Assembly (NCBI GenBank): GCA_016929645.1
Contig: JAFGIK010000028.1
Location: 11,402 to 75,401 of the forward strand
From: Candidatus Dojkabacteria bacterium
GTDB taxonomy: Bacteria > Patescibacteriota > Dojkabacteria > SC72 > JAFGCJ01
DNA length: 64,000 nucleotides
Direction of reading: 5' to 3'
How positions within the stretch are numbered: the stretch's first letter is position 1; the number at the start of each line of letters is the position of its first letter. The notes under the pieces were generated by a model. That model was not told the origin of the DNA and searched no databases. It worked only from the letters and a program-made list of their open reading frames with translations. Below are positions 32,526 to 53,129 of this stretch, piece after piece. Position numbers and translations under genes: made by a program.

Positions 32526-32947
32526 GGGGACGCATTTGGTTTCGACAGTTGTTCGCGTTCTAACGCTCAAGTCAGAGTAAAGCTCTGTAAAAACTTACAA
32601 ATAGACAGCAATAGTCTAGTACAACGTGTTCAGAAAGCTGCAAGTAACATTGTAGCTGGTTTTAATGCAGCATTAGCTGGATTAAATACTATGAATGCGG
32701 TAGTTGCATAACTAGCGACTACAGACCTGGATGGCTTTTTCTTGATAGAGCCTCCAACGTCTTTCACCTATCAAGATATATAGGAAAGGTAAACGTGATA
32801 AGCCTGACCTTCGAACTCTAAAATTATCACTACTGCATTTTGTTTTGTCAGCTTTATAAAATGCAGGAAATACTAAACTGACAAAACTTGTTTAAGGCGT
32901 TATTACAAAGCAATTGGACGTGGGTTCGACTCCCGCCGTCTCCACCA
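32526..32947 (+). ncRNA. ssrA: tmRNA (SsrA)
   Basis: 5' GGGGACGCATTTGGTTTCGAC ... 3' GGACGTGGGTTCGACTCCCGCCGTCTCCACCA. Acceptor stem with a G3:U70 wobble, T-arm GGTTCGACTCC and a terminal CCA. The internal tag-like frame ...AALAGLNTMNAVVA ends at TAA; the resume codon is uncertain. Confidence 0.9.
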
Positions 32948-44402: not shown

Positions 44403-45125
44403 TCAATCCTTAAGACCAAGTACTTTCAACAATTGAGGAAAACGAACAATAGTAAAATCTGGCTTTATGTCTGAATCCTTAGGAATTTCCTTCTTTTTAG
44501 GATTAAACCAGCAACAATCAATTCCGAAAGATTTTGCTCCTACGATATCTGCATCGAAATTATCACCAATCATAATAATTTCGTTTTTTTGAGCTCCTGT
44601 TTTATTAAGTGCTAATTCAAAGATTTGGGGTTCTGGTTTAGTGTAAATAACCTCCTCCGAAGCAACAAAAAAGTCTATTAAATCAGCAATCTTCAGAGAA
44701 ATTATCTTCTCAAGCCGAGAATGTAAAGATCCATCTGAGACAGCAGTAATTTTTATTCCAGAGTCTCTGATTTTTTGTAAAGTCTCAAGAACTCCAGGAA
44801 ATAACTGAATATACACATTAACAGTAAACCAATAAGCTTCATGCATTTCTAAAATCATTTCCTCATTAGACTTTATACCTAATCTCTCAAGTAAATTCTC
44901 AAAAAGGATTGCACGATTATGTGAAATTGTATTATGTACATAAGTTTCTTTCAAATCTTTCCTTACTTCAAGAAACAATTCTTTAAATTTTGTATATTTT
45001 ACCTTAGGATAAAATGAATGAAGTTTTTCGTATGAAACCCTAATTGCCTCATTGTAAAGGCTTTTAGAATTAAAAAGCGTTTCATCAAGATCGGTAAATA
45101 AATGCTTGTATTTTAATGTTTTCAT
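44403..45125 (-). CDS. HAD-superfamily hydrolase
   Basis: Motif I FTDLDETLF and motif IV IGDNFDADI. Confidence 0.7.
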   Translation of the reverse strand: MKTLKYKHLFTDLDETLFNSKSLYNEAIRVSYEKLHSFYPKVKYTKFKELFLEVRKDLKETYVHNTISHNRAILFENLLERLGIKSNEEMILEMHEAYWFTVNVYIQLFPGVLETLQKIRDSGIKITAVSDGSLHSRLEKIISLKIADLIDFFVASEEVIYTKPEPQIFELALNKTGAQKNEIIMIGDNFDADIVGAKSFGIDCCWFNPKKKEIPKDSDIKPDFTIVRFPQLLKVLGLKD

Positions 45126-45250
45126 ACCTTTATCATATCTTATTTTATTAACTATTTAAAGTAATATTTCTCTATTGTTTTTTGAATAATCCTATAGTAT
45201 AATCAGTGCTATGAATTTTTATATTCAAAAACACAAACGAAACGAAAATA

Positions 45251-45396
45251 ATGAGAGATGCATTAGCCTTATTAAGCGTTCAGCATTCATGGGAATTGTC
45301 GTCCCTTGTACAAAAATGCTGAATAACGGAGGCTAATAGTTATCGAGCAACTTATCTCTTTTGATACAATAAAGCCTCCAATACGGAGGCTTTTTT
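45251..45396 (+). promoter_or_regulatory. Leader ORF (23 codons, MRDALALLSVQHSWELSSLVQKC) plus terminator/antiterminator upstream of the MFS gene
   Basis: CGGAGGCT (45327-45334) can pair with AGCCTCC (45373-45379). Alternatively AGCCTCC-AATAC-GGAGGCT forms a hairpin followed by TTTTTTATTGTTTTATTTT. Confidence 0.35.
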
Positions 45397-45578
45397 ATTG
45401 TTTTATTTTCCTCATAAATTTCTAATAAACCATAAAAACTCTCTAGTAGCATCCTTTTCTTGCACCACGTATTGGAGGTTTTGCTGTCTTAGAAGCATTT
45501 AAGACAGCTCTTTACAATCACATATCTTAACAATCCAAATTCAGACATATCACTTAGCTGGCATAGAAAAGGAGAAAG

Positions 45579-46787
45579 ATGAATGCTCAAACAAACCGGT
45601 TCAAGAAGTACTTTATTGTCTCGATTTTCCTGCTTAGCTCGTTTATGACAGGATTCGAGTTTATTGGGTCCATTATCACCCCATTTTTCACAAAATGGGC
45701 AGGGCTGGAGTATGTATGGATCATGACTCTCCAATCTTGGTTCTCGGCAATAATCTTCATCATGGAAATTCCGACAGGAATGATAGGCGACAAGTTTGGA
45801 AACAAGTTGTCCGTAGGTTTAGGTTATCTGTTCATGCTTATTGGAACAATAACCTACACAATTGTCCCTGACCTCAGACTTTTCTTCATCGCAGAGGCCC
45901 TTTTTGCAATCGGGGTGTCGTTTTGCTCAGGGGCAGACCAAAGCCTTCTGTCAAACGCAATGAGAGATCTTGGAATGAAAGATTCATTCTCAAGAATCCA
46001 AGGCCTGAAGCAAAACTTCCATCTTGCAGGAATGATGTGCGCAGGACTACTGACAAAAGTCGTAGTCACAGCGCTGCCTCTCAATAAGGTTTTCAGACTG
46101 GGAGCTGTAGGCCACGCACTTGCGCTGATACTGCTGATTGCGTTTATTCCTGATTCTACTAACGGTAGGCACCACAAGTCATTTATAACGATAATAAAGA
46201 ATGCGGTAGTGCAGCTGCGAGAGCGACACGAACTCAGAAGAGTCTCAATCTATATCATGTTGATCTATAGCATCGGATACTTTGTAATCTGGACCAATCA
46301 GGCACTACTGACAATGATTGGTATCCCAGAAACAGAATTTGGATTCTATCGAATACTTTTCACTGGCACAGAGATTGTGATAACAAGCATCGCAATCGAG
46401 ATTCAGGCGAGGGTAAAGAATAAACGGAGATTTAACTTTATTCTCGTTGTGTTCATTGCTGTGGGCTTTATTGTCGGAGCAATCTCGAAAACATGGATTG
46501 GTGCAGCGTTGTTCATCACATTATCTGGGGGCATCGGTATGTCCTTCATTACAATCCAAACAGGGGTGATAGACAAACTTATCAACCGTGCAGAGAAGTC
46601 GACGGTGCTCTCCGGAATTAGCATGATCAGAAGAATCATAATTGCTGCATTGAACCCAATCGTGGGCCATTTCATGGATATAAACTTGCGATTGGTACTC
46701 GTTGTAATAGGCGTTGCAACGCTTGCATGCATGCTAATAGTGCCAAGAAACACAGACTTCACAGCGAAGGCTGTAGAAGAGGATTAG
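45579..46787 (+). CDS. MFS transporter (12 TM helices, motif A GMIGDKFGNK)
   Basis: MFS signature. Noticeably GC-richer than the surrounding genes. Confidence 0.8.
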   Translation: MNAQTNRFKKYFIVSIFLLSSFMTGFEFIGSIITPFFTKWAGLEYVWIMTLQSWFSAIIFIMEIPTGMIGDKFGNKLSVGLGYLFMLIGTITYTIVPDLRLFFIAEALFAIGVSFCSGADQSLLSNAMRDLGMKDSFSRIQGLKQNFHLAGMMCAGLLTKVVVTALPLNKVFRLGAVGHALALILLIAFIPDSTNGRHHKSFITIIKNAVVQLRERHELRRVSIYIMLIYSIGYFVIWTNQALLTMIGIPETEFGFYRILFTGTEIVITSIAIEIQARVKNKRRFNFILVVFIAVGFIVGAISKTWIGAALFITLSGGIGMSFITIQTGVIDKLINRAEKSTVLSGISMIRRIIIAALNPIVGHFMDINLRLVLVVIGVATLACMLIVPRNTDFTAKAVEED

Positions 46788-46817
46788 TTGATAGGACAAG
46801 ATATGTGACAAGAGTAG

Positions 46818-46848
46818 GCGGGAGGGAAATCTCCGATTTCCCTCCCGC
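46818..46848 (+). terminator. Perfect 14-bp GC-rich hairpin downstream of the MFS gene (GCGGGAGGGAAATC-TCC-GATTTCCCTCCCGC)
   Basis: Seen directly; followed by CAGGTTTTC. Confidence 0.5.
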
Positions 46849-46926
46849 CAGGTTTTCAATAAAAACATGCGGCAATAACACCGACAAATTAACAACGTCC
46901 TAAAGGAGTGATACACAGTTATAACA

Positions 46927-47619
46927 TTACTCAGTACTGGAAAAAGAGATGCTATCGACAAGGTTTTCGTAGTATTCTTCATGTGAACGATCAATATCAT
47001 CCCACCATGAGATTGTATGAACATAGCTGCCAGCATCAACTACAATATATTTTCCAAAATAAATATCTTTTTTGGATTCATCATAGGACAAATCGATTTC
47101 ACCTTCATAATAAAAACATGGGATACCTCCAACCAAAATCTCACCTTGAACTGGCTCACTGACCCAACTGTAATTGGAAATTGAATTCAAGAGAAGTTCA
47201 GGTTTTGTTCCTAGCCCTGGCAAAGATTCGATTTGAAGTGTCGACACTGGATAATTTGACTCAGAAAGTACAATTTCCGTGTCAAAGCATGGCGAACATT
47301 GACCAGTATTCGTACATCGGTCATAACATTCTTCTGGAGTATTAAGCTTGGCATTCTGCGGGTATTTAATTCTAAATCCGTATCCCAAGGCATTTTCGTA
47401 GATCTCCCATTCCTCAACATCAGGAATCAGAACCTCAGAATCTTCATCTGTGTCTCCTTCATCTTCTGATACATTTGCATCATTACCATTAATTATATAT
47501 TCATTAAACATCAAATATCCCCAAATAATAATTAAACCGGCAATAAAGATAACCATCAATAATCTGGAATTTCTGTTTATTTGAGGTTCTTTTTTCTTTT
47601 TTGTATCTACTTCCCCCAT
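46927..47619 (-). CDS. Hypothetical membrane-anchored secreted protein (Cys-containing)
   Basis: N-terminal TM LLMVIFIAGLIIIWGYLMF followed by an acidic linker. Confidence 0.35.
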   Translation of the reverse strand: MGEVDTKKKKEPQINRNSRLLMVIFIAGLIIIWGYLMFNEYIINGNDANVSEDEGDTDEDSEVLIPDVEEWEIYENALGYGFRIKYPQNAKLNTPEECYDRCTNTGQCSPCFDTEIVLSESNYPVSTLQIESLPGLGTKPELLLNSISNYSWVSEPVQGEILVGGIPCFYYEGEIDLSYDESKKDIYFGKYIVVDAGSYVHTISWWDDIDRSHEEYYENLVDSISFSSTE

Positions 47620-47627
47620 ATCAACTA

Positions 47628-48116
47628 TTAATTCTTTTTTAAATAAATCACACCGGAAATATGTTTTGATTTATGTTCTTTTTCGGTATTTGCATCTAGT
47701 GCATCCGTTAATATTGAGGTTTCAAAATCTTCATGATTAATTATTTTTTCATTAACAATAGCGACATCATGTTTTATTGAATTTGCATTACGATTCTCTT
47801 CCATATGAACAATAGGAATATTTTTGGATTTCTGCTTAATTCTGACATTACTATCACTACCATCAGAGTAAATTGATTGTCGCTTTGAGGTGGAAACCTC
47901 TATCCTTAAAGAACGGCCTTCAAAGGCTTTCCCATCCAAAGATTTGATCACATCTTCCACGTTCACTTCATCCTCCATAGTGACAAAGGCGAAACCTTTA
48001 AATCTACCGTTTTTAAACTTAGCAATTGAGACTTCTTTCACTTTACCTGCTTTTTCAAACCAATCTTTAAGAGATTCTTCTGTGCTTGACCAAGGAATAT
48101 TACCCACAAACAGCAT
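47628..48116 (-). CDS. RRM-type RNA-binding protein. Start at MLFVGNIPW, about 22 codons inside the track ORF.
   Basis: RNP2 LFVGNI and RNP1 KGFAFVTM motifs. Confidence 0.6.
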   Translation of the reverse strand: MLFVGNIPWSSTEESLKDWFEKAGKVKEVSIAKFKNGRFKGFAFVTMEDEVNVEDVIKSLDGKAFEGRSLRIEVSTSKRQSIYSDGSDSNVRIKQKSKNIPIVHMEENRNANSIKHDVAIVNEKIINHEDFETSILTDALDANTEKEHKSKHISGVIYLKKN

Positions 48117-48156
48117 ATTTGACATAAATATCATCTTAGAAAAATAAATATTAAGG

Positions 48157-49887
48157 CTATAAGCGCCAATCCACAGGCTCATCTAGTTCTCGGATGAGCA
48201 CGAAATATGAAGATTTTGAATCCAGAGCAAAATCGTTACCATAATAAGTTTGATTATCATATATCAATCCTTTGTATCGACCATCCACATAAGCCATAAC
48301 AGACTTTGCTCCAATTGAATTATTATTTAGTTCATCAAGTAATTCTTTTGCCATAATACCATCATTAAAAACAGAATGGTCCCAACTCGTTGAATCACTA
48401 CCTCCGAGAGAAATCAGATTCCAGCCGACATTTAAATGTATAGCATCACTTTGTTCCAACTCATTTACAGACATAGAGATATCCGCCCCAGTAGAATTAA
48501 CAATATATCCTGTATTTGATTCCAAATCAAAATTATTTCCATAAAACTCTCCATTTGACTTCTTTTCATAGCTGATCCAACGTCCATTGTCATATGTGGC
48601 AATAGACCTGAAGTTTCCGTTTGATGAAGTAATATATTCTGCAATACTTTCAGCTTTTCGACCATCAAGATCATATGGAAAAGAAACAAAAGTTGATCCT
48701 GGATCTAGTTCGTAACTAACATCTATCTTCGTTTCTTCATTGTCATCATCAGACAATGGATATTTGTAATCTTCAAAATTTCCTTGTACCTCAAAAATTT
48801 TCTGCTGGTTTTCTACAAAATTATTATCAGCATCAATTAATGTTCTTTTGAATTCGATGTTATCATTAGATACGGTCGCTATAATAACCTCATCATAAAG
48901 ACCCGGAGCACCAACATTTTCTGTAGATACACCATACATTGACCATAATTGAACACCATTATAAACCTCATCTCCACCTTTATGACCATGTCCCATAAAT
49001 ACGGCTTTCAGATTACTATCACAGCCTAGTTCATCAATAATATACTTTGGGAAAAGAGTTCCATCAGAGGAAGAAGTTTCACGGTGATGAATAAACATGA
49101 TTGATGCTGAAGCTTTGTTTGAATCACACACCTCGCTTCTTATCCAATTCATATCTTCTGTATTTCCTGGAAAATTTTGAAAAAAATTATAACCAAGTAT
49201 GATGAAATTTATATTTCCCCTAACAAAGGAATATGTGTGATCAGTACTATCTGCTGTACAAAATCCATTGGTAGCAATTTCAGGATTAAATGGTGCAGGA
49301 AAATCTGTTTTAGTCTGAAGCTCTACAGTTTCAAAATTAGCAGAATAATGATCTCGAGGGCTTTCTGCTTCAGAGCCCCAATAGTTAAAAGTGCCATTAC
49401 AAATGCCATTCTCATAGCTATCCAGCATTACGTATTTTTTGTTGGGATATTCAGTTCCTTCAACTCGCTCTACGTCATGATTGCCGAGAGCCACATGAAT
49501 TTCCATAAGCTCATCTTTATCAGTTTGTGTAATATATTCCTTTGATTGCAAGGCAAGTAATCCTTTTGTAGGCTGATATCTGTAATCTCCAACATGAACA
49601 TCGCCCATCTTGTGGGCCCAGGTAATATCACCAACATGAATTAGCATTTTAGAATCGTTTTCAGCGACTTGTTGAAACAGAGTGTCATATGACTGAGTCT
49701 CAGTATTATGGGTATCTGTTATTATCGAAAACGACCAAGGTGTAAACTGCTCTGTTGTAGCACTACTTCTGGGATCCATTGTCGTTGACTGTTGTGTCAA
49801 AGCTACGACTATAAAAAATAGCGTTAAACTAACACTAAAGATCCCAATTATAAAAAAATTATTGCTGTTGTTTTTGCGAACGGGCAT
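48157..49887 (-). CDS. Secreted calcineurin-like metallophosphoesterase
   Basis: Signal/TM N-terminus and GDITWAH...GNHD...GHGH phosphoesterase motifs. Confidence 0.6.
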   Translation of the reverse strand: MPVRKNNSNNFFIIGIFSVSLTLFFIVVALTQQSTTMDPRSSATTEQFTPWSFSIITDTHNTETQSYDTLFQQVAENDSKMLIHVGDITWAHKMGDVHVGDYRYQPTKGLLALQSKEYITQTDKDELMEIHVALGNHDVERVEGTEYPNKKYVMLDSYENGICNGTFNYWGSEAESPRDHYSANFETVELQTKTDFPAPFNPEIATNGFCTADSTDHTYSFVRGNINFIILGYNFFQNFPGNTEDMNWIRSEVCDSNKASASIMFIHHRETSSSDGTLFPKYIIDELGCDSNLKAVFMGHGHKGGDEVYNGVQLWSMYGVSTENVGAPGLYDEVIIATVSNDNIEFKRTLIDADNNFVENQQKIFEVQGNFEDYKYPLSDDDNEETKIDVSYELDPGSTFVSFPYDLDGRKAESIAEYITSSNGNFRSIATYDNGRWISYEKKSNGEFYGNNFDLESNTGYIVNSTGADISMSVNELEQSDAIHLNVGWNLISLGGSDSTSWDHSVFNDGIMAKELLDELNNNSIGAKSVMAYVDGRYKGLIYDNQTYYGNDFALDSKSSYFVLIRELDEPVDWRL

Positions 49888-50141: not shown

Positions 50142-50177
50142 TAATAATTTATGAAAACATTGAACAACTCAAAATTA

Positions 50178-50277
50178 ATGATGGTAATGATGATGCAAAA
50201 CCTCTAGGAGGCATGTGATTCATATACTTTCATTAAAATCGCATACCTCCGAAAAGGAGGTTTTTTGTTTTTTTATG
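50178..50277 (+). promoter_or_regulatory. Met-codon-rich leader ORF (ATG ATG GTA ATG ATG ATG CAA AAC CTC TAG) plus terminator/antiterminator upstream of metG
   Basis: GGAGGCAT (50207-50214) can pair with ATACCTCC (50243-50250). Alternatively ACCTCC-GAAAA-GGAGGT (50245-50261) forms a hairpin followed by TTTTTTGTTTTTTT. Confidence 0.45.
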
Positions 50278-50309: not shown

Positions 50310-53129
50310 ATGAAAACACAAATTTTCGAAAAATTAAAATCGCAGCACAAAAAGATTTTTATTGGAGTCTCATGGCCATACGCAAATGGCGATATACACC
50401 TTGGACACCTTGCTGGTCAAAATGTCGTGTGCGATGTTTTTGCCCGTTATCACAGGCTTATTGGAAACGAAGTCCTAATGGTTTCAGGAAGCGATTGTCA
50501 CGGTGCACCTGTTGTTTTTGCCGCAGAAGAAAAAGGCATTAAACCAGAGGAATTTGCAGAAAAATCTCATGAAAATATTTTAAAAACATTTAAGAGACTT
50601 GGATTTTTATATGAAAATTACACTTCAACAACAACAGAAAACCATAAAAAAGTTGCACAAAATGTTTTTTTAGTATTAAAAGAGAAAGGTTATCTTGTTG
50701 AAAAAGAATCTCAACAATACTTCGATCCCAAGGTCAATAGGTTTTTGCCAGACAGATATGTCAGAGGAACTTGCCCAAACTGCAAAGCAGACAATGCCCG
50801 CGGTGATGAATGTCCTGAGTGTGGAGCCTATCTTGATCCAGAGGAGCTAATCAACCCTCGTAGCACATTATCTGATGCCACCCCAATAATCAAACAGACG
50901 AATCATTTTTATCTGGACTTGCGAAAAGCAGCACCAAAACTCAACGAATGGTTGAAAGATAAGAATTACTGGCGAAAATGGGTACTGGAAGTTTCTCGAG
51001 GATGGATTAAAAATGGATTAAAACCTCGGGCTATCACCCGTGACATGGACTACGGAATCAAAGTTCCAGTTGACGGATGGGAAGGAAAAGTCATATACGT
51101 ATGGTTTGAGGCAGTTATCGGATATTTATCTGCAGCAATTGAATGGGCCGCCAAGCAAGGAAACCCCGGCAAATGGGAAGAATTCTGGAAGAATTCAGAA
51201 TGTAAGCATTATTACTTTATTGCAGGCGGAAATGTACCGTTTCACACAATAATATGGCCTGCCGAAATTTTCGCTTACAACGAAAAGTACGAAGATAAGG
51301 CGATATTCGAGAAATATAAACTTCCGGGGGAAACAACACAGGAAAATCTTCAACTTCCTTATGACGTACCTGCAAATAATATGCTGACATTCCGTGGCAA
51401 AAAGATGTCAAAAGGTGACAAAACAGGAATAACCTTACAGAAATTACTTGATGAATACAAATTTAACCCTGATACATTAAGGTATTTTTTTGTAAAAAAT
51501 GCGCCGGAAGATACAAACCGAGACTATATATCAAAAGATCTTGTCGACTCAAATAACAACGAATTGGTGGCAAATATCGGCAATTTTATTAATCGAGTTG
51601 TTTCTTTTACGAATTCGAAGTTTGAAGGAATCGTGCCGGAAGGGCATGTTAATAACGAGACCGAGACTCAGCTTAATGAAACTTTCATTAAAACTGGAAA
51701 ATATATCGAAGAATGCGAATTTGTTAAAGCAATTGAACAAATTCTGGCACTTGGACACTACGCTAATAAGTATTTTAACGATCAAAAACCTTGGGAAAAA
51801 ATAAAAACCGAGCAAGAAAATGCAAGTAACACCATTTACAACTCTATCCAGATTGTGTCTGCATTTGGAACCCTGCTGAAGCCTTTTTTACCGTTCACAG
51901 CAGAAAAAATTCAAAAAATGTTAAATTTTAATGAATTGTATGATCCTAACAAAGAACTTGAATCTAATGGCAAAATATCAAAGTTTGTAAACGTATGGAA
52001 ATTTAATGAAATCCCAGTGGGTCAAAAAATTAACAAACCTGAGATTTTATTTGAAAAGCTCGATTACAGAGAGGAATTCCAAAAGACTGACAACCCTGAA
52101 CCAGAAATCATCATAAGCACTGAAACATCGGGCTTAGATTTCTCAAAGATTGATCCAAACGTTGTTATCGCAAAAATTAAAAGCTCACAGCCACATCCGA
52201 AAGACGCTAAATTAAAAATTCATGAAGTTGAGTCTCGGTCTCCAAGCAGAGTCGTCTGTGCCGCCCAAAACGTAAACCCAGGCGATATCGTCCCGCTCGC
52301 CCTTCCAGGAAGCAAAGTACTTTCGCTTTCAGGGAAAGGCAAACATAAGATCGAAAGTGCCACCATAAAAGGTGAAAAATCAGAGGGAATGCTTTGCGCC
52401 CAAGTAGAACTTGGCATAGGTCAAGACACCAAAAACATATATATCCTTCCAAAATCATTCGAAAAACATATTGGAAAACCGTTATCATCAATCCGTTCAA
52501 TTGGTCTCAACATAGATGAAACCCTAAAAGATGAACCTGTCCTTTGGACTGTCGTTAGGGACATTAACATCAAGAGGAATCGATCGAATAAGTTGAACAA
52601 ATGGATCCATGATCGTGAGCTGGAGGTTGAACAGATAACCAAAAATAAGAAATGGAAAGAAAATGAAATTTATTCTCATTTTCGAGAATTACACAGCAAA
52701 TATGGAGCAGGGGATACTCCAGGAGCAGCAGAGGAGTTGATATCTTTCGTTAATAAAAACCATGCATTGCCAAACATTAACAACTTCGTCGATTTATACA
52801 ACACTTTTTCGGCAACAACAGGAATATCAATAGGAGCTCATGACATAGAAAGGATTGATGGTACGCCACAGCTAAAAATCCTTGAAAAAGATCAAGAATT
52901 CAATCATGTGACAACAAATACAAAAGATGTTGCCAAAAAAGGCGAATACGCATTTACTGATGATAAAGGAGTGATGTGCAGACTGGACATAAAACAGTCG
53001 AACCATACAAATGTCACACAGAAAACTAAAAAAATCCTTATTATTTTCCAAGGAACTAAGACTCTGACAATCAAAGTATTGAAAGAAAAATTAAAGGAAT
53101 TCGAAAAACTAGTTAAAGAACTTCTTTAG
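50310..53129 (+). CDS. metG: Methionyl-tRNA synthetase fused to a C-terminal tRNA_bind OB-fold and a PheT-like B3/4 domain (939 aa)
   Basis: HLGH and KMSKG class I motifs, Zn knuckle CPNCK...CPECG, tRNA_bind (PGDIVPLALPGSKV...SEGMLCAQVELGI), then VDLYNTFSATTGISIGAHDIERIDG...AFTDDKGVMCRLDI resembling the PheT B3/4 block [25 protein letters not shown]...IADHNKALAMGGI. Confidence 0.9.
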   Translation: MKTQIFEKLKSQHKKIFIGVSWPYANGDIHLGHLAGQNVVCDVFARYHRLIGNEVLMVSGSDCHGAPVVFAAEEKGIKPEEFAEKSHENILKTFKRLGFLYENYTSTTTENHKKVAQNVFLVLKEKGYLVEKESQQYFDPKVNRFLPDRYVRGTCPNCKADNARGDECPECGAYLDPEELINPRSTLSDATPIIKQTNHFYLDLRKAAPKLNEWLKDKNYWRKWVLEVSRGWIKNGLKPRAITRDMDYGIKVPVDGWEGKVIYVWFEAVIGYLSAAIEWAAKQGNPGKWEEFWKNSECKHYYFIAGGNVPFHTIIWPAEIFAYNEKYEDKAIFEKYKLPGETTQENLQLPYDVPANNMLTFRGKKMSKGDKTGITLQKLLDEYKFNPDTLRYFFVKNAPEDTNRDYISKDLVDSNNNELVANIGNFINRVVSFTNSKFEGIVPEGHVNNETETQLNETFIKTGKYIEECEFVKAIEQILALGHYANKYFNDQKPWEKIKTEQENASNTIYNSIQIVSAFGTLLKPFLPFTAEKIQKMLNFNELYDPNKELESNGKISKFVNVWKFNEIPVGQKINKPEILFEKLDYREEFQKTDNPEPEIIISTETSGLDFSKIDPNVVIAKIKSSQPHPKDAKLKIHEVESRSPSRVVCAAQNVNPGDIVPLALPGSKVLSLSGKGKHKIESATIKGEKSEGMLCAQVELGIGQDTKNIYILPKSFEKHIGKPLSSIRSIGLNIDETLKDEPVLWTVVRDINIKRNRSNKLNKWIHDRELEVEQITKNKKWKENEIYSHFRELHSKYGAGDTPGAAEELISFVNKNHALPNINNFVDLYNTFSATTGISIGAHDIERIDGTPQLKILEKDQEFNHVTTNTKDVAKKGEYAFTDDKGVMCRLDIKQSNHTNVTQKTKKILIIFQGTKTLTIKVLKEKLKEFEKLVKELL
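51655..51700. repeat. Possible degenerate partial copy inside metG (GACCGAGACTCAGCTT + AATGAAACTTTCATTAAAA)
   Basis: A 16-nt exact match to the copy A core plus an arm-like palindrome. Encodes NETETQLNETFIK in frame. Confidence 0.3.
52209..52239. repeat. Partial copy of the palindromic element inside metG (AAAAATTCATGAAGTTGAGTCTCGGTCT)
   Basis: Matches the reverse complement of copy A (AAAATTTAATGAAGCTGAGTCTCGGTCT) at about 27 of 30 positions. Encodes HEVESRS in frame. Confidence 0.45.

Follow-up and report, generated by a model that had tools for sequence, protein, structure and literature searches.

The 64,000-nt stretch of DNA analysed here, called the window below (Candidatus Dojkabacteria bacterium, GCA_016929645.1, contig JAFGIK010000028.1, positions 11,402-75,401, forward strand), carries a gene for a transporter of the major facilitator superfamily (MFS), and the question raised by this locus is what the 453 nt ahead of that gene do. 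An earlier note on this DNA proposed that they hold a leader-peptide attenuator and that the gene is possibly an acquired, antibiotic-inducible efflux gene. Results of our analysis indicate, with a probability that we put at about 0.75, that a ribosome-dependent transcription attenuator controls the MFS gene. All coordinates given below are positions within the window. The gap borders a HAD hydrolase gene (44403-45125) on the strand opposite to that of the MFS gene, so the intergenic region is divergent and a terminator inside it ends neither flanking gene. The features of the leader and the gene are as follows.

45175-45203, + strand: predicted promoter, with -35 TTGTTT (45175-45180), a 17-nt spacer and -10 TATAAT (45198-45203), read from the sequence
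45211-45336, + strand: leader upstream open reading frame (uORF) of 41 codons, MNFYIQKHKRNENNERCISLIKRSAFMGIVVPCTKMLNNGG and a stop, ending GGA GGC TAA across segment 2; the homologous frame is open in 30/30 leaders
45259-45270, + strand: segment 1, TGCATTAGCCTT, the 5' strand of the anti-antiterminator, pairing with segment 2 (GGAGGCTAAT) in minimum free energy (MFE) and centroid folds
45279-45323, + strand: P2 hairpin within the uORF, TTCAGCATT / AATGCTGAA, with an inner GGGA/TCCC stem (sequence and fold)
45327-45337, + strand: segment 2, CGGAGGCTAAT, pairing with segment 1 or with segment 3 (antiterminator) and overlapping the last two codons and the stop (folds and comparison)
45371-45396, + strand: intrinsic terminator, composed of segment 3 (AAAGCCTCC), the loop AATAC, segment 4 (GGAGGCTTT) and a T-tract to 45396 (scan and pattern statistics)
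45567-45578, + strand: Shine-Dalgarno (SD) region of the MFS gene, AAAAGGAGAAAG (sequence)
45579-46787, + strand: MFS transporter gene, 402 aa, Pfam MFS_1 at 3e-13 as the sole Pfam match

A conserved leader reading frame

The leader was compared across about 160 loci homologous to the MFS locus (individual loci are referred to by L numbers), with upstream regions taken from homolog contigs, one genome scan and one metagenome scan. Thirty-one distinct leaders carry a terminator of the type CCTCC-loop-GGAGG-T at 100-250 nt upstream of the MFS start, and 30 of them keep the region further upstream, the 31st (L093) being cut at a contig end. In all 30, a -10 box, mostly of the extended form TGnTATAAT, lies 5-10 nt ahead of the ATG of a uORF of 21-41 codons, the stop of which falls 0-6 codons past an invariant GGAG in segment 2. 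The frame is free of stops in every one of these leaders; in the same stretch, the two remaining frames average about 2 and 2.8 stops. At about 0.07 stops per codon, the chance of a 35-codon open frame is about 0.08 per independent lineage, and at least 12 independent lineages are represented. In the window, the ATG at 45211 sits 7 nt past TATAAT, so that the uORF is predicted to be effectively leaderless, and it reads segment 2 as Gly-Gly-stop.

A generic scan, independent of sequence, which required a -10 box with an ATG close by, a uORF and an intrinsic terminator of whatever sequence, was applied to the 143 MFS-homolog loci with enough upstream sequence. The same plan, in which the presence of a terminator is a condition built into the scans, was found in 53 of them (44 distinct), with uORFs of 21-41 codons and terminators 18-41 nt past the stop. 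It recurs with terminators of the classes CCAGCC...GGCTGG, CTCCGCC...GCGGAG and ATCTCGG...CCGAGAT. Comparison of the leaders shows, in the sequences at hand, an open frame with a regular placement relative to the predicted promoter and the terminator.

Translation of the uORF, rather than the sequence of its peptide, appears to be constrained. Insertions and deletions are in frame (one codon is missing in L106 and 15 in L099), substitutions between close leaders are spread equally over codon positions 1, 2 and 3, and nonsynonymous changes outnumber synonymous ones, with seven against none between L011 and L110. In the pair L002/L003, all three differences alter the peptide, including an otherwise common Pro, and two of them, as judged by reading the sequences, keep base pairs of P2. 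Such free divergence argues against a functional micro-protein as well as against a strict arrest peptide. No residue run is present in the 44 distinct MFS leaders, and a leader lacking a codon run for one amino acid is unlikely to report a single charged tRNA. A loose mid-leader motif, P-[AS]-[MT]-[LC]-[VG], stands just ahead of the P2 hairpin and recurs across classes; it is lost in the window and in L003, where the Pro is replaced. In class A, the motif is invariant as nucleotides, CCA UCU AUG.

The idea of a leader ORF thus stands, but not with the frame first named. The 23-codon ORF at 45251-45322 exists, but it lies in a different frame from the conserved uORF at 45211-45336, has no SD sequence and is not at the 5' end. 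A second uORF past segment 4, inspected by eye in the leader sequences, is not conserved. In L134 (~960-990) and L028 (~2255-2280), segment 4 GGAGGC is followed at SD-like spacing by a mini-ORF, encoding MMCCVFSEV and MAKHEN, respectively, before a stop; these mini-ORFs are not conserved elsewhere.

Two further observations concern natural variation of the leader. That of L099 (1234-1299) bears an in-frame 45-nt deletion, which removes segment 1 and the Pro-Ser-Met site and keeps segment 2, the stop and the terminator, and it offers a natural test case for the role of segment 1. The homologs L007, L008, L010, L014, L057 and L068, from lineages of the candidate phyla radiation (CPR), have no leader and carry a TATAAT-like box 6-10 nt ahead of the MFS start itself, which suggests that leaderless mRNAs are common in those lineages.

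Competing pairings and the proposed attenuator

The set of three alternatively pairing segments described by the earlier note (CGGAGGCT at 45327-45334, AGCCTCC at 45373-45379 and GGAGGCT at 45385-45391, followed by T6) is present in the sequence, and the terminator scan agrees with it: the pattern GCCTCC-N3-8-GGAGGC, which is also called by that scan, occurs once in the window against 0.01 expected. The terminator hairpin has a predicted energy of -14.2 kcal/mol and is conserved in the CCTCC class of loci. When the leader was folded, as had been suggested, the region 45225-45405 reached -51.4 kcal/mol as compared to -31.0 kcal/mol in shuffled sequences (z -5.6). To the three segments a fourth can be added upstream, namely segment 1 (45259-45270). 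Its pairing with segment 2 appears in full-length MFE folds, and the duplex of segment 1 and P2 with the segment 2 region amounts to -22.3 kcal/mol. In other leaders, a hairpin of unrelated sequence occupies the position of P2.

RNAalifold, run on a MAFFT alignment of 25 leaders, returned the helix of segments 2 and 3 as the sole consensus helix, with a flanking pair that is U-A in 17 leaders, U-G in three and C-G in two; since variable stems misalign in this alignment, per-sequence folding and swap tests were used instead. In other classes segment 2 is shifted to fit the terminator, as in the case of GCUGGUUUC (Ala-Gly-Phe) opposite GAAACCAGC. When the 3' end of the uORF was combined with the terminator arm of its own class (CCUCC, CCAGC and others, respectively), the energies were -11.4, -10.5 and -11.6 kcal/mol; when it was combined with arms of other classes, they were -6.1, -7.1 and -4.3 kcal/mol. 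The antiterminator thus covaries with the 5' arm of the terminator even where the terminator sequences are unrelated. It takes the form of a long hairpin in most loci: its 5' arm consists of segment 2 with the last ~8 codons and the stop, and its 3' arm of a conserved spacer and segment 3, which accounts for the fixed distance between the stop and the terminator. The energies of the antiterminator duplexes lie between -14.5 and -26 kcal/mol and are equalled or bettered by 0-7 of 200 shuffles, L002 being the exception (23/200), and in all loci but L005 the antiterminator is at least as stable as the terminator.

Folding of the nascent RNA before segment 4 is made places segment 3 in a pair with segment 2 in almost every locus, and segment 3 is freed in such truncated folds when the ribosomal P-site is in the last ~7-12 codons. 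Once segment 4 has been added, most loci fold into the terminator as their MFE structure wherever the ribosome is placed, and equilibrium folding with a ribosome mask was therefore rejected as proof of the switch. The end of the terminator is as close as 6-42 nt to the MFS start in at least 17 loci, which have no room for a separate promoter; there, the terminator hairpin probably also blocks access to the initiation region. No promoter-like site was found between 45397 and 45578 in the window. A conserved internal promoter in the region of segment 5 and hairpin P5 described below, was sought by eye, and no such conservation was seen.

We infer that transcription begins a few bases ahead of the ATG at 45211 and that the 41-codon leader is translated as an effectively leaderless mRNA. 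Four segments would then compete: segment 1 (45259-70) with segment 2 (45327-37), segment 2 with segment 3 (45371-79), and segment 3 with segment 4 (45385-93), the last pairing together with the following Ts being the terminator. A ribosome that has reached the stop would cover segment 2 and leave segment 3 free, so that the terminator would form and transcription would end at ~45396. With no ribosome on the leader, segment 1 would hold segment 2, and the outcome would be the same. If a ribosome lagged or stalled earlier, segment 1 would be covered or unwound and segment 2 exposed, so that segments 2 and 3 would pair first, no terminator would form and transcription would read through into the MFS gene. 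The direction of response that we infer is that slower translation of the leader gives higher expression of the transporter gene; the physiological signal would be whatever slows the ribosome on the leader, and its identification would reveal the purpose of the transporter.

Several points weigh against such an attenuator. The transcription start and leaderless initiation at 45211 are predictions. The window has the weakest antiterminator in the family (CGGAGGCU/AGCCUCC, -14.5 kcal/mol, with a loop of ~40 nt and 7/200 shuffles equal to it), and its stop-to-terminator spacing of 38 nt is outside the family mode, the spacing in other leaders being 23-33 nt and mostly 26-27 nt. At equilibrium, the terminator of the window wins for all ribosome positions tested, and therefore the choice to read through must be kinetic; a kinetic choice is usual for attenuators. 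In truncated folds, segments 2 and 3 pair without a ribosome in most loci, so that a protective role of segment 1 is, on thermodynamic grounds, tentative. Neither a regulatory codon run nor a recognised arrest motif is present in the leader, and the CCA-UCU-AUG of class A, being conserved at the level of nucleotides, could function as RNA and not through the encoded peptide.

The leader of L104 (metagenome contig Ga0076318_143) is almost identical to that of L011, apart from a short deletion in the terminator 5' arm, which reads AATAGCCAATACTGGAGG instead of AATAGCCTCCAAATACTGGAGG. As judged from this change, termination is predicted to be lost in this natural variant.

The transporter family and the possibility of antibiotic efflux

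The protein of the window is 100% identical to the database entry 'MFS transporter [Candidatus Dojkabacteria bacterium]', and the next homologs show 37-38% identity. Its relatives occur in many CPR lineages and in DPANN archaea. The DPANN carriers include Woesearchaeota, Diapherotrites, Nanoarchaeia, Altiarchaeota and Micrarchaeota (L017-L020, L024, L029, L032, L034 and others), and at the DPANN MFS loci the generic scan detected no uORF-terminator leader. The homology search proposed by the earlier note has not separated a drug antiporter from a metabolite transporter. MFS motif A (G-x3-D-x2-G-x-[KR], between transmembrane helices (TM) 2 and 3) is present as GMIGDKFGNK at residues 67-76, and the search for a substrate by means of Pfam, NCBIfam, solved structures and motifs returned generic MFS signals alone.

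Could the leader nevertheless serve a drug:H+ efflux pump that was acquired laterally, and sense ribosome-targeting antibiotics in the way of mef(E)/mel, cmlA, fexA, bmrCD and vmlR? The logic of the attenuator fits induction by slowed translation, and leader peptides are known ahead of genes for an MFS pump, an ABC transporter and an ABCF resistance factor. The best NCBIfam matches are indeed multidrug, Tet and Bcr/CflA pumps, but with 18-23 bits against cut-offs of 131-800 all scores for named families are far too low, and antiporter motif C (G-x3-G-P-x2-G-G, TM5) is missing in 16/16 family proteins checked. Matches to solved structures are weak and generic; NorA and YajR are among them, but the top one is the fucose symporter FucP. 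The recurrence of the mid-leader motif could speak for a sensed peptide, but the peptide is free of purifying selection, and both the window and L003 have another residue in place of its 'conserved' Pro. Moreover, the family belongs to CPR and DPANN organisms, which depend on nutrient uptake, and a starvation-induced importer fits equally well. The earlier designation of the gene as one of antibiotic-inducible efflux is thus not borne out by its sequence, and we regard this explanation, which stays a hypothesis, as unlikely.

The composition of the gene bears on the same possibility. The impression that it is richer in GC than its neighbours was confirmed by computation over the 46 non-overlapping ORFs of the window that have at least 120 codons each: its GC content of 0.435 against a mean of 0.349 (z 2.7) and its third-position GC content (GC3) of 0.496 against 0.276 +/- 0.046 (z 4.8) both rank first. 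Positions 1 and 2 are ordinary, and the GC excess is wholly at third codon positions. This anomaly is compatible with lateral transfer, plausibly from a GC-richer relative, e.g., of the L002/L003 lineage (GC3 0.52). Against the gene having been acquired, the MFS gene is slightly GC3-richer than most neighbours in nearly all other loci with measurable flanks, and in L162 the excess is also large (0.42 vs. 0.22-0.28). As the same gene is enriched in other genomes, part of the bias may be intrinsic. Neither a donor nor a synteny break was identified in support of acquisition, and no gene neighbours are consistently conserved across the MFS-homolog loci. The family and its leader are native to CPR bacteria and are not imports from known resistance elements.

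A module between the terminator and the gene

In the CCTCC class, the terminator and the MFS start are 90-215 nt apart, and this interval holds further elements, which in the window are the following.

45402-45424, + strand: U/C-rich tract past the terminator, TTTATTTTCCTC ... TTTCTA, with predicted and tentative pairing to the MFS SD and start (MFE folds)
45469-45479, + strand: segment 5, GTATTGGAGGT, an exact complement of segment 3 and the terminator loop (CCTCCAATAC), duplex of -15.5 kcal/mol, 0/300 shuffles as good
45483-45508, + strand: P5 hairpin, GCTGTCTTA-N8-TAAGACAGC, directly past segment 5, with a perfect 9-bp stem extendable to 11 bp

Segment 5 duplexes across loci of this class range from -9.2 to -15.6 kcal/mol, with 0-12 of 300 shuffles as good. 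The sequence of segment 5 follows that of the loop: AAAUAC is matched by GUAUUU, AAUAC by GUAUU (the window), GGAAAC by UUCCGG and GAAAAA by UUUUC, and the swap matrix is block-diagonal. An antiterminator role is excluded for segment 5, as it is made only once the decision on termination has been taken. The second perfect hairpin of the earlier note, P5, is present, with a loop of eight rather than nine nucleotides, and it belongs to this conserved module: most loci with the module have a hairpin of differing sequence past segment 5. Past P5, class A leaders repeat the loop sequence (CCAAAUAC), and this copy may serve as an alternative partner for segment 5. Segment 5, P5 and the U/C-rich tract facing the SD probably add a second, post-transcriptional layer to the attenuator.

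Pairing between the U/C-rich tract and the SD is within the best 5% of composition-matched shuffles in 4/25 loci and is no better than shuffles in the other 21, which include the window, so that the tract is kept as a tentative feature. The SD was more accessible in the state with segments 3 and 5 paired in 19/23 loci, a result that a pseudoknot-free model largely forces and that was not used as evidence.

A two-stage relay widespread in CPR bacteria can be imagined, in which the leaderless uORF decides on termination and segment 5 then captures the 5' arm and loop of the terminator; such capture may take place in read-through transcripts, or in trans on or from abundant terminated leader RNA. 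The relay could be triggered by the nascent peptide or by the codons at the conserved Pro-x-Met, as a report on a nutrient or host compound that these symbiotic bacteria have to import or expel. If the relay were real, a transient transcriptional decision would be turned into a lasting change in the structure, translation or stability of the transporter mRNA. We consider the full scheme improbable. We have found no description, for attenuators, of a downstream segment that covaries with the terminator loop, and such covariation may point to a step after termination.

Other readings of the leader

A ligand- or protein-binding RNA switch (a riboswitch or a protein-dependent antiterminator), in which the junction of P1 and P2 senses a metabolite and the ORF is incidental, would agree with the strong fold (z -5.6), with the conserved P1-P2 architecture, its covarying stems and its conserved unpaired AAGCCAUCUAUG, UAUAUUGGAG and AAAUUGUCAGUGAAUAG, and with the nucleotide-invariant CCA-UCU-AUG of class A. 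No Rfam family matches the leader of the window or six other leaders at either gathering or permissive thresholds. With Rfam 15, a search of the whole window at the gathering score returned a transfer-messenger RNA (tmRNA) alone; a search of 45100-45620 with E up to 10 gave at most chance-level, terminator-driven matches, e.g., Phe_leader and STnc370; and the six other leader loci gave no match. The check for a known riboswitch, raised as something that might account for the structure, therefore turned up none that explains it. An RNA switch would moreover leave unexplained why the frame is open in AT-rich sequence in 30/30 leaders and in 44 distinct ones in the wider scan, why the start past the -10 box and the position of the stop are fixed and why the indels are in frame, and classes of unrelated RNA sequence keep the ORF plan. 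This reading is very unlikely.

That 45211-45396 is an independent small gene (for a micro-protein, a secreted peptide or a small RNA), with the MFS gene separate or expressed by leaky read-through and perhaps exporting the peptide, is hardly credible: the unit does have its own promoter and an efficient-looking terminator, its pairing with the MFS gene is conserved across many genomes, and the complementarity of the terminator loop to segment 5 could let terminated leader RNA act in trans on the full-length mRNA, but the peptides diverge freely with nonsynonymous changes in excess and have neither a signal peptide nor a conserved cleavage motif, the complementarity of the uORF 3' end to the terminator arm, seen in all classes, is a property of regulation and not of coding, and the MFS gene is left with no other promoter in the many loci where the terminator abuts its start, nor does the window have a promoter-like site between the two.

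Comparison with known systems

The working principle of the proposed attenuator, that of uORF attenuators, is known. The vmlR leader of Bacillus subtilis combines uORF-dependent transcription attenuation with translation attenuation, and ribosome stalling on its uORF blocks the anti-antiterminator and leads to read-through (PMC9226507). The MFS leader resembles it in the serial order of uORF, putative anti-antiterminator, antiterminator and intrinsic terminator, and probably in having more than one regulatory layer. The two leaders are without sequence relationship; the uORF is effectively leaderless here and SD-led in vmlR, and the gene controlled is an MFS transporter here and an ABCF factor in vmlR. 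For the extra segment here, which complements the terminator loop, no counterpart is known to have been described.

The macrolide-inducible MFS efflux system mef(E)/mel has a leader peptide of eight residues, MTASMRLR, and a terminator (PMC4335068), and the transporter gene of bmrB-bmrCD is reported to be under a leader peptide and a Rho-independent terminator (PMC4191407). As in both systems, the transporter gene in our case is preceded by a long 5' region that encodes a short leader peptide and contains a Rho-independent terminator. Unlike the MFS leader, those leaders are SD-led and have known antibiotic inducers; in contrast to the 8-residue mef(E) peptide, the leader here has 21-41 codons and its sequence is not conserved. 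Neither the NCBIfam comparison nor that with solved structures identifies the MFS protein as a Mef homolog.

The four-segment logic of 1:2, 2:3 and 3:4 pairings is that of the classical attenuators of trp, his and pheST, from which the MFS leader differs in having no codon run for a single amino acid. Leaderless leader peptides ahead of tRNA-synthetase genes have been described in Deinococcus deserti (PMC4007540), and the predicted position of the start codon at or adjoining the 5' end of the transcript is a feature shared with them. Our search of the full-text literature found no description of this leader and no published cis-acting RNA regulation, attenuators included, for the largely uncultured CPR bacteria. 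What is new appears to be an undescribed leader family with predicted leaderless initiation, without a codon run and with a module that covaries with the terminator loop. Attached to one transporter family common to CPR lineages, the leader family constitutes a defined regulatory element that exists in 44 distinct natural forms, and these variants, deletions included, are testable sequences for in vitro work.

A second leader in the same window has the classical form. The metG gene (50310-53129) is preceded by an 18-codon ORF, MKTLNNSKLMMVMMMQNL and a stop (50151-50207), with five Met in six codons; the UAG stop overlaps GGAGG, and a terminator CCTCC-GAAAA-GGAGG-T6 follows ~40 nt further on (region 50151-50266). 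Its sequence has the appearance of a classical leader-peptide attenuator in which Met codons control methionyl-tRNA synthetase, and Rfam gave no T-box match in the window. On this account, ribosome-coupled attenuation with the same CCUCC/GGAGG elements is in use in this organism, and the likeness of the MFS leader to the metG leader in its GGAGG/CCTCC/GGAGG design, pointed out before, holds, the run of Met codons being lacking in the MFS leader. The MFS leader, with the support of the metG leader, indicates that leaderless translation and ribosome-coupled attenuation operate in the reduced genomes of CPR bacteria.

Other features of the window

46817-46849, + strand: 3' hairpin, probable terminator of the MFS gene, with a perfect 15-bp stem and a 3-nt loop

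The perfect GC hairpin reported downstream of the MFS gene is thus present, with a stem of 15 bp where 14 bp had been claimed. Its energy is about -30 kcal/mol (z -4.3 vs. shuffles), and a weak T-tract, AGGTTTTC, stands behind it. The convergent gene at 46927-47619 has a terminator-like site of its own (46883-46870). Two genes past the MFS gene, 47628-48182 on the - strand encodes a protein of 184 aa that contains a clear RNA recognition motif of the eukaryotic type (Pfam RRM_1, 2.7e-20) and that was not seen adjoining the MFS gene in other loci. At 32526-32947, the tmRNA gene (Rfam RF00023, 96.9 bits) has a long insertion relative to the model in the region of the tag reading frame.

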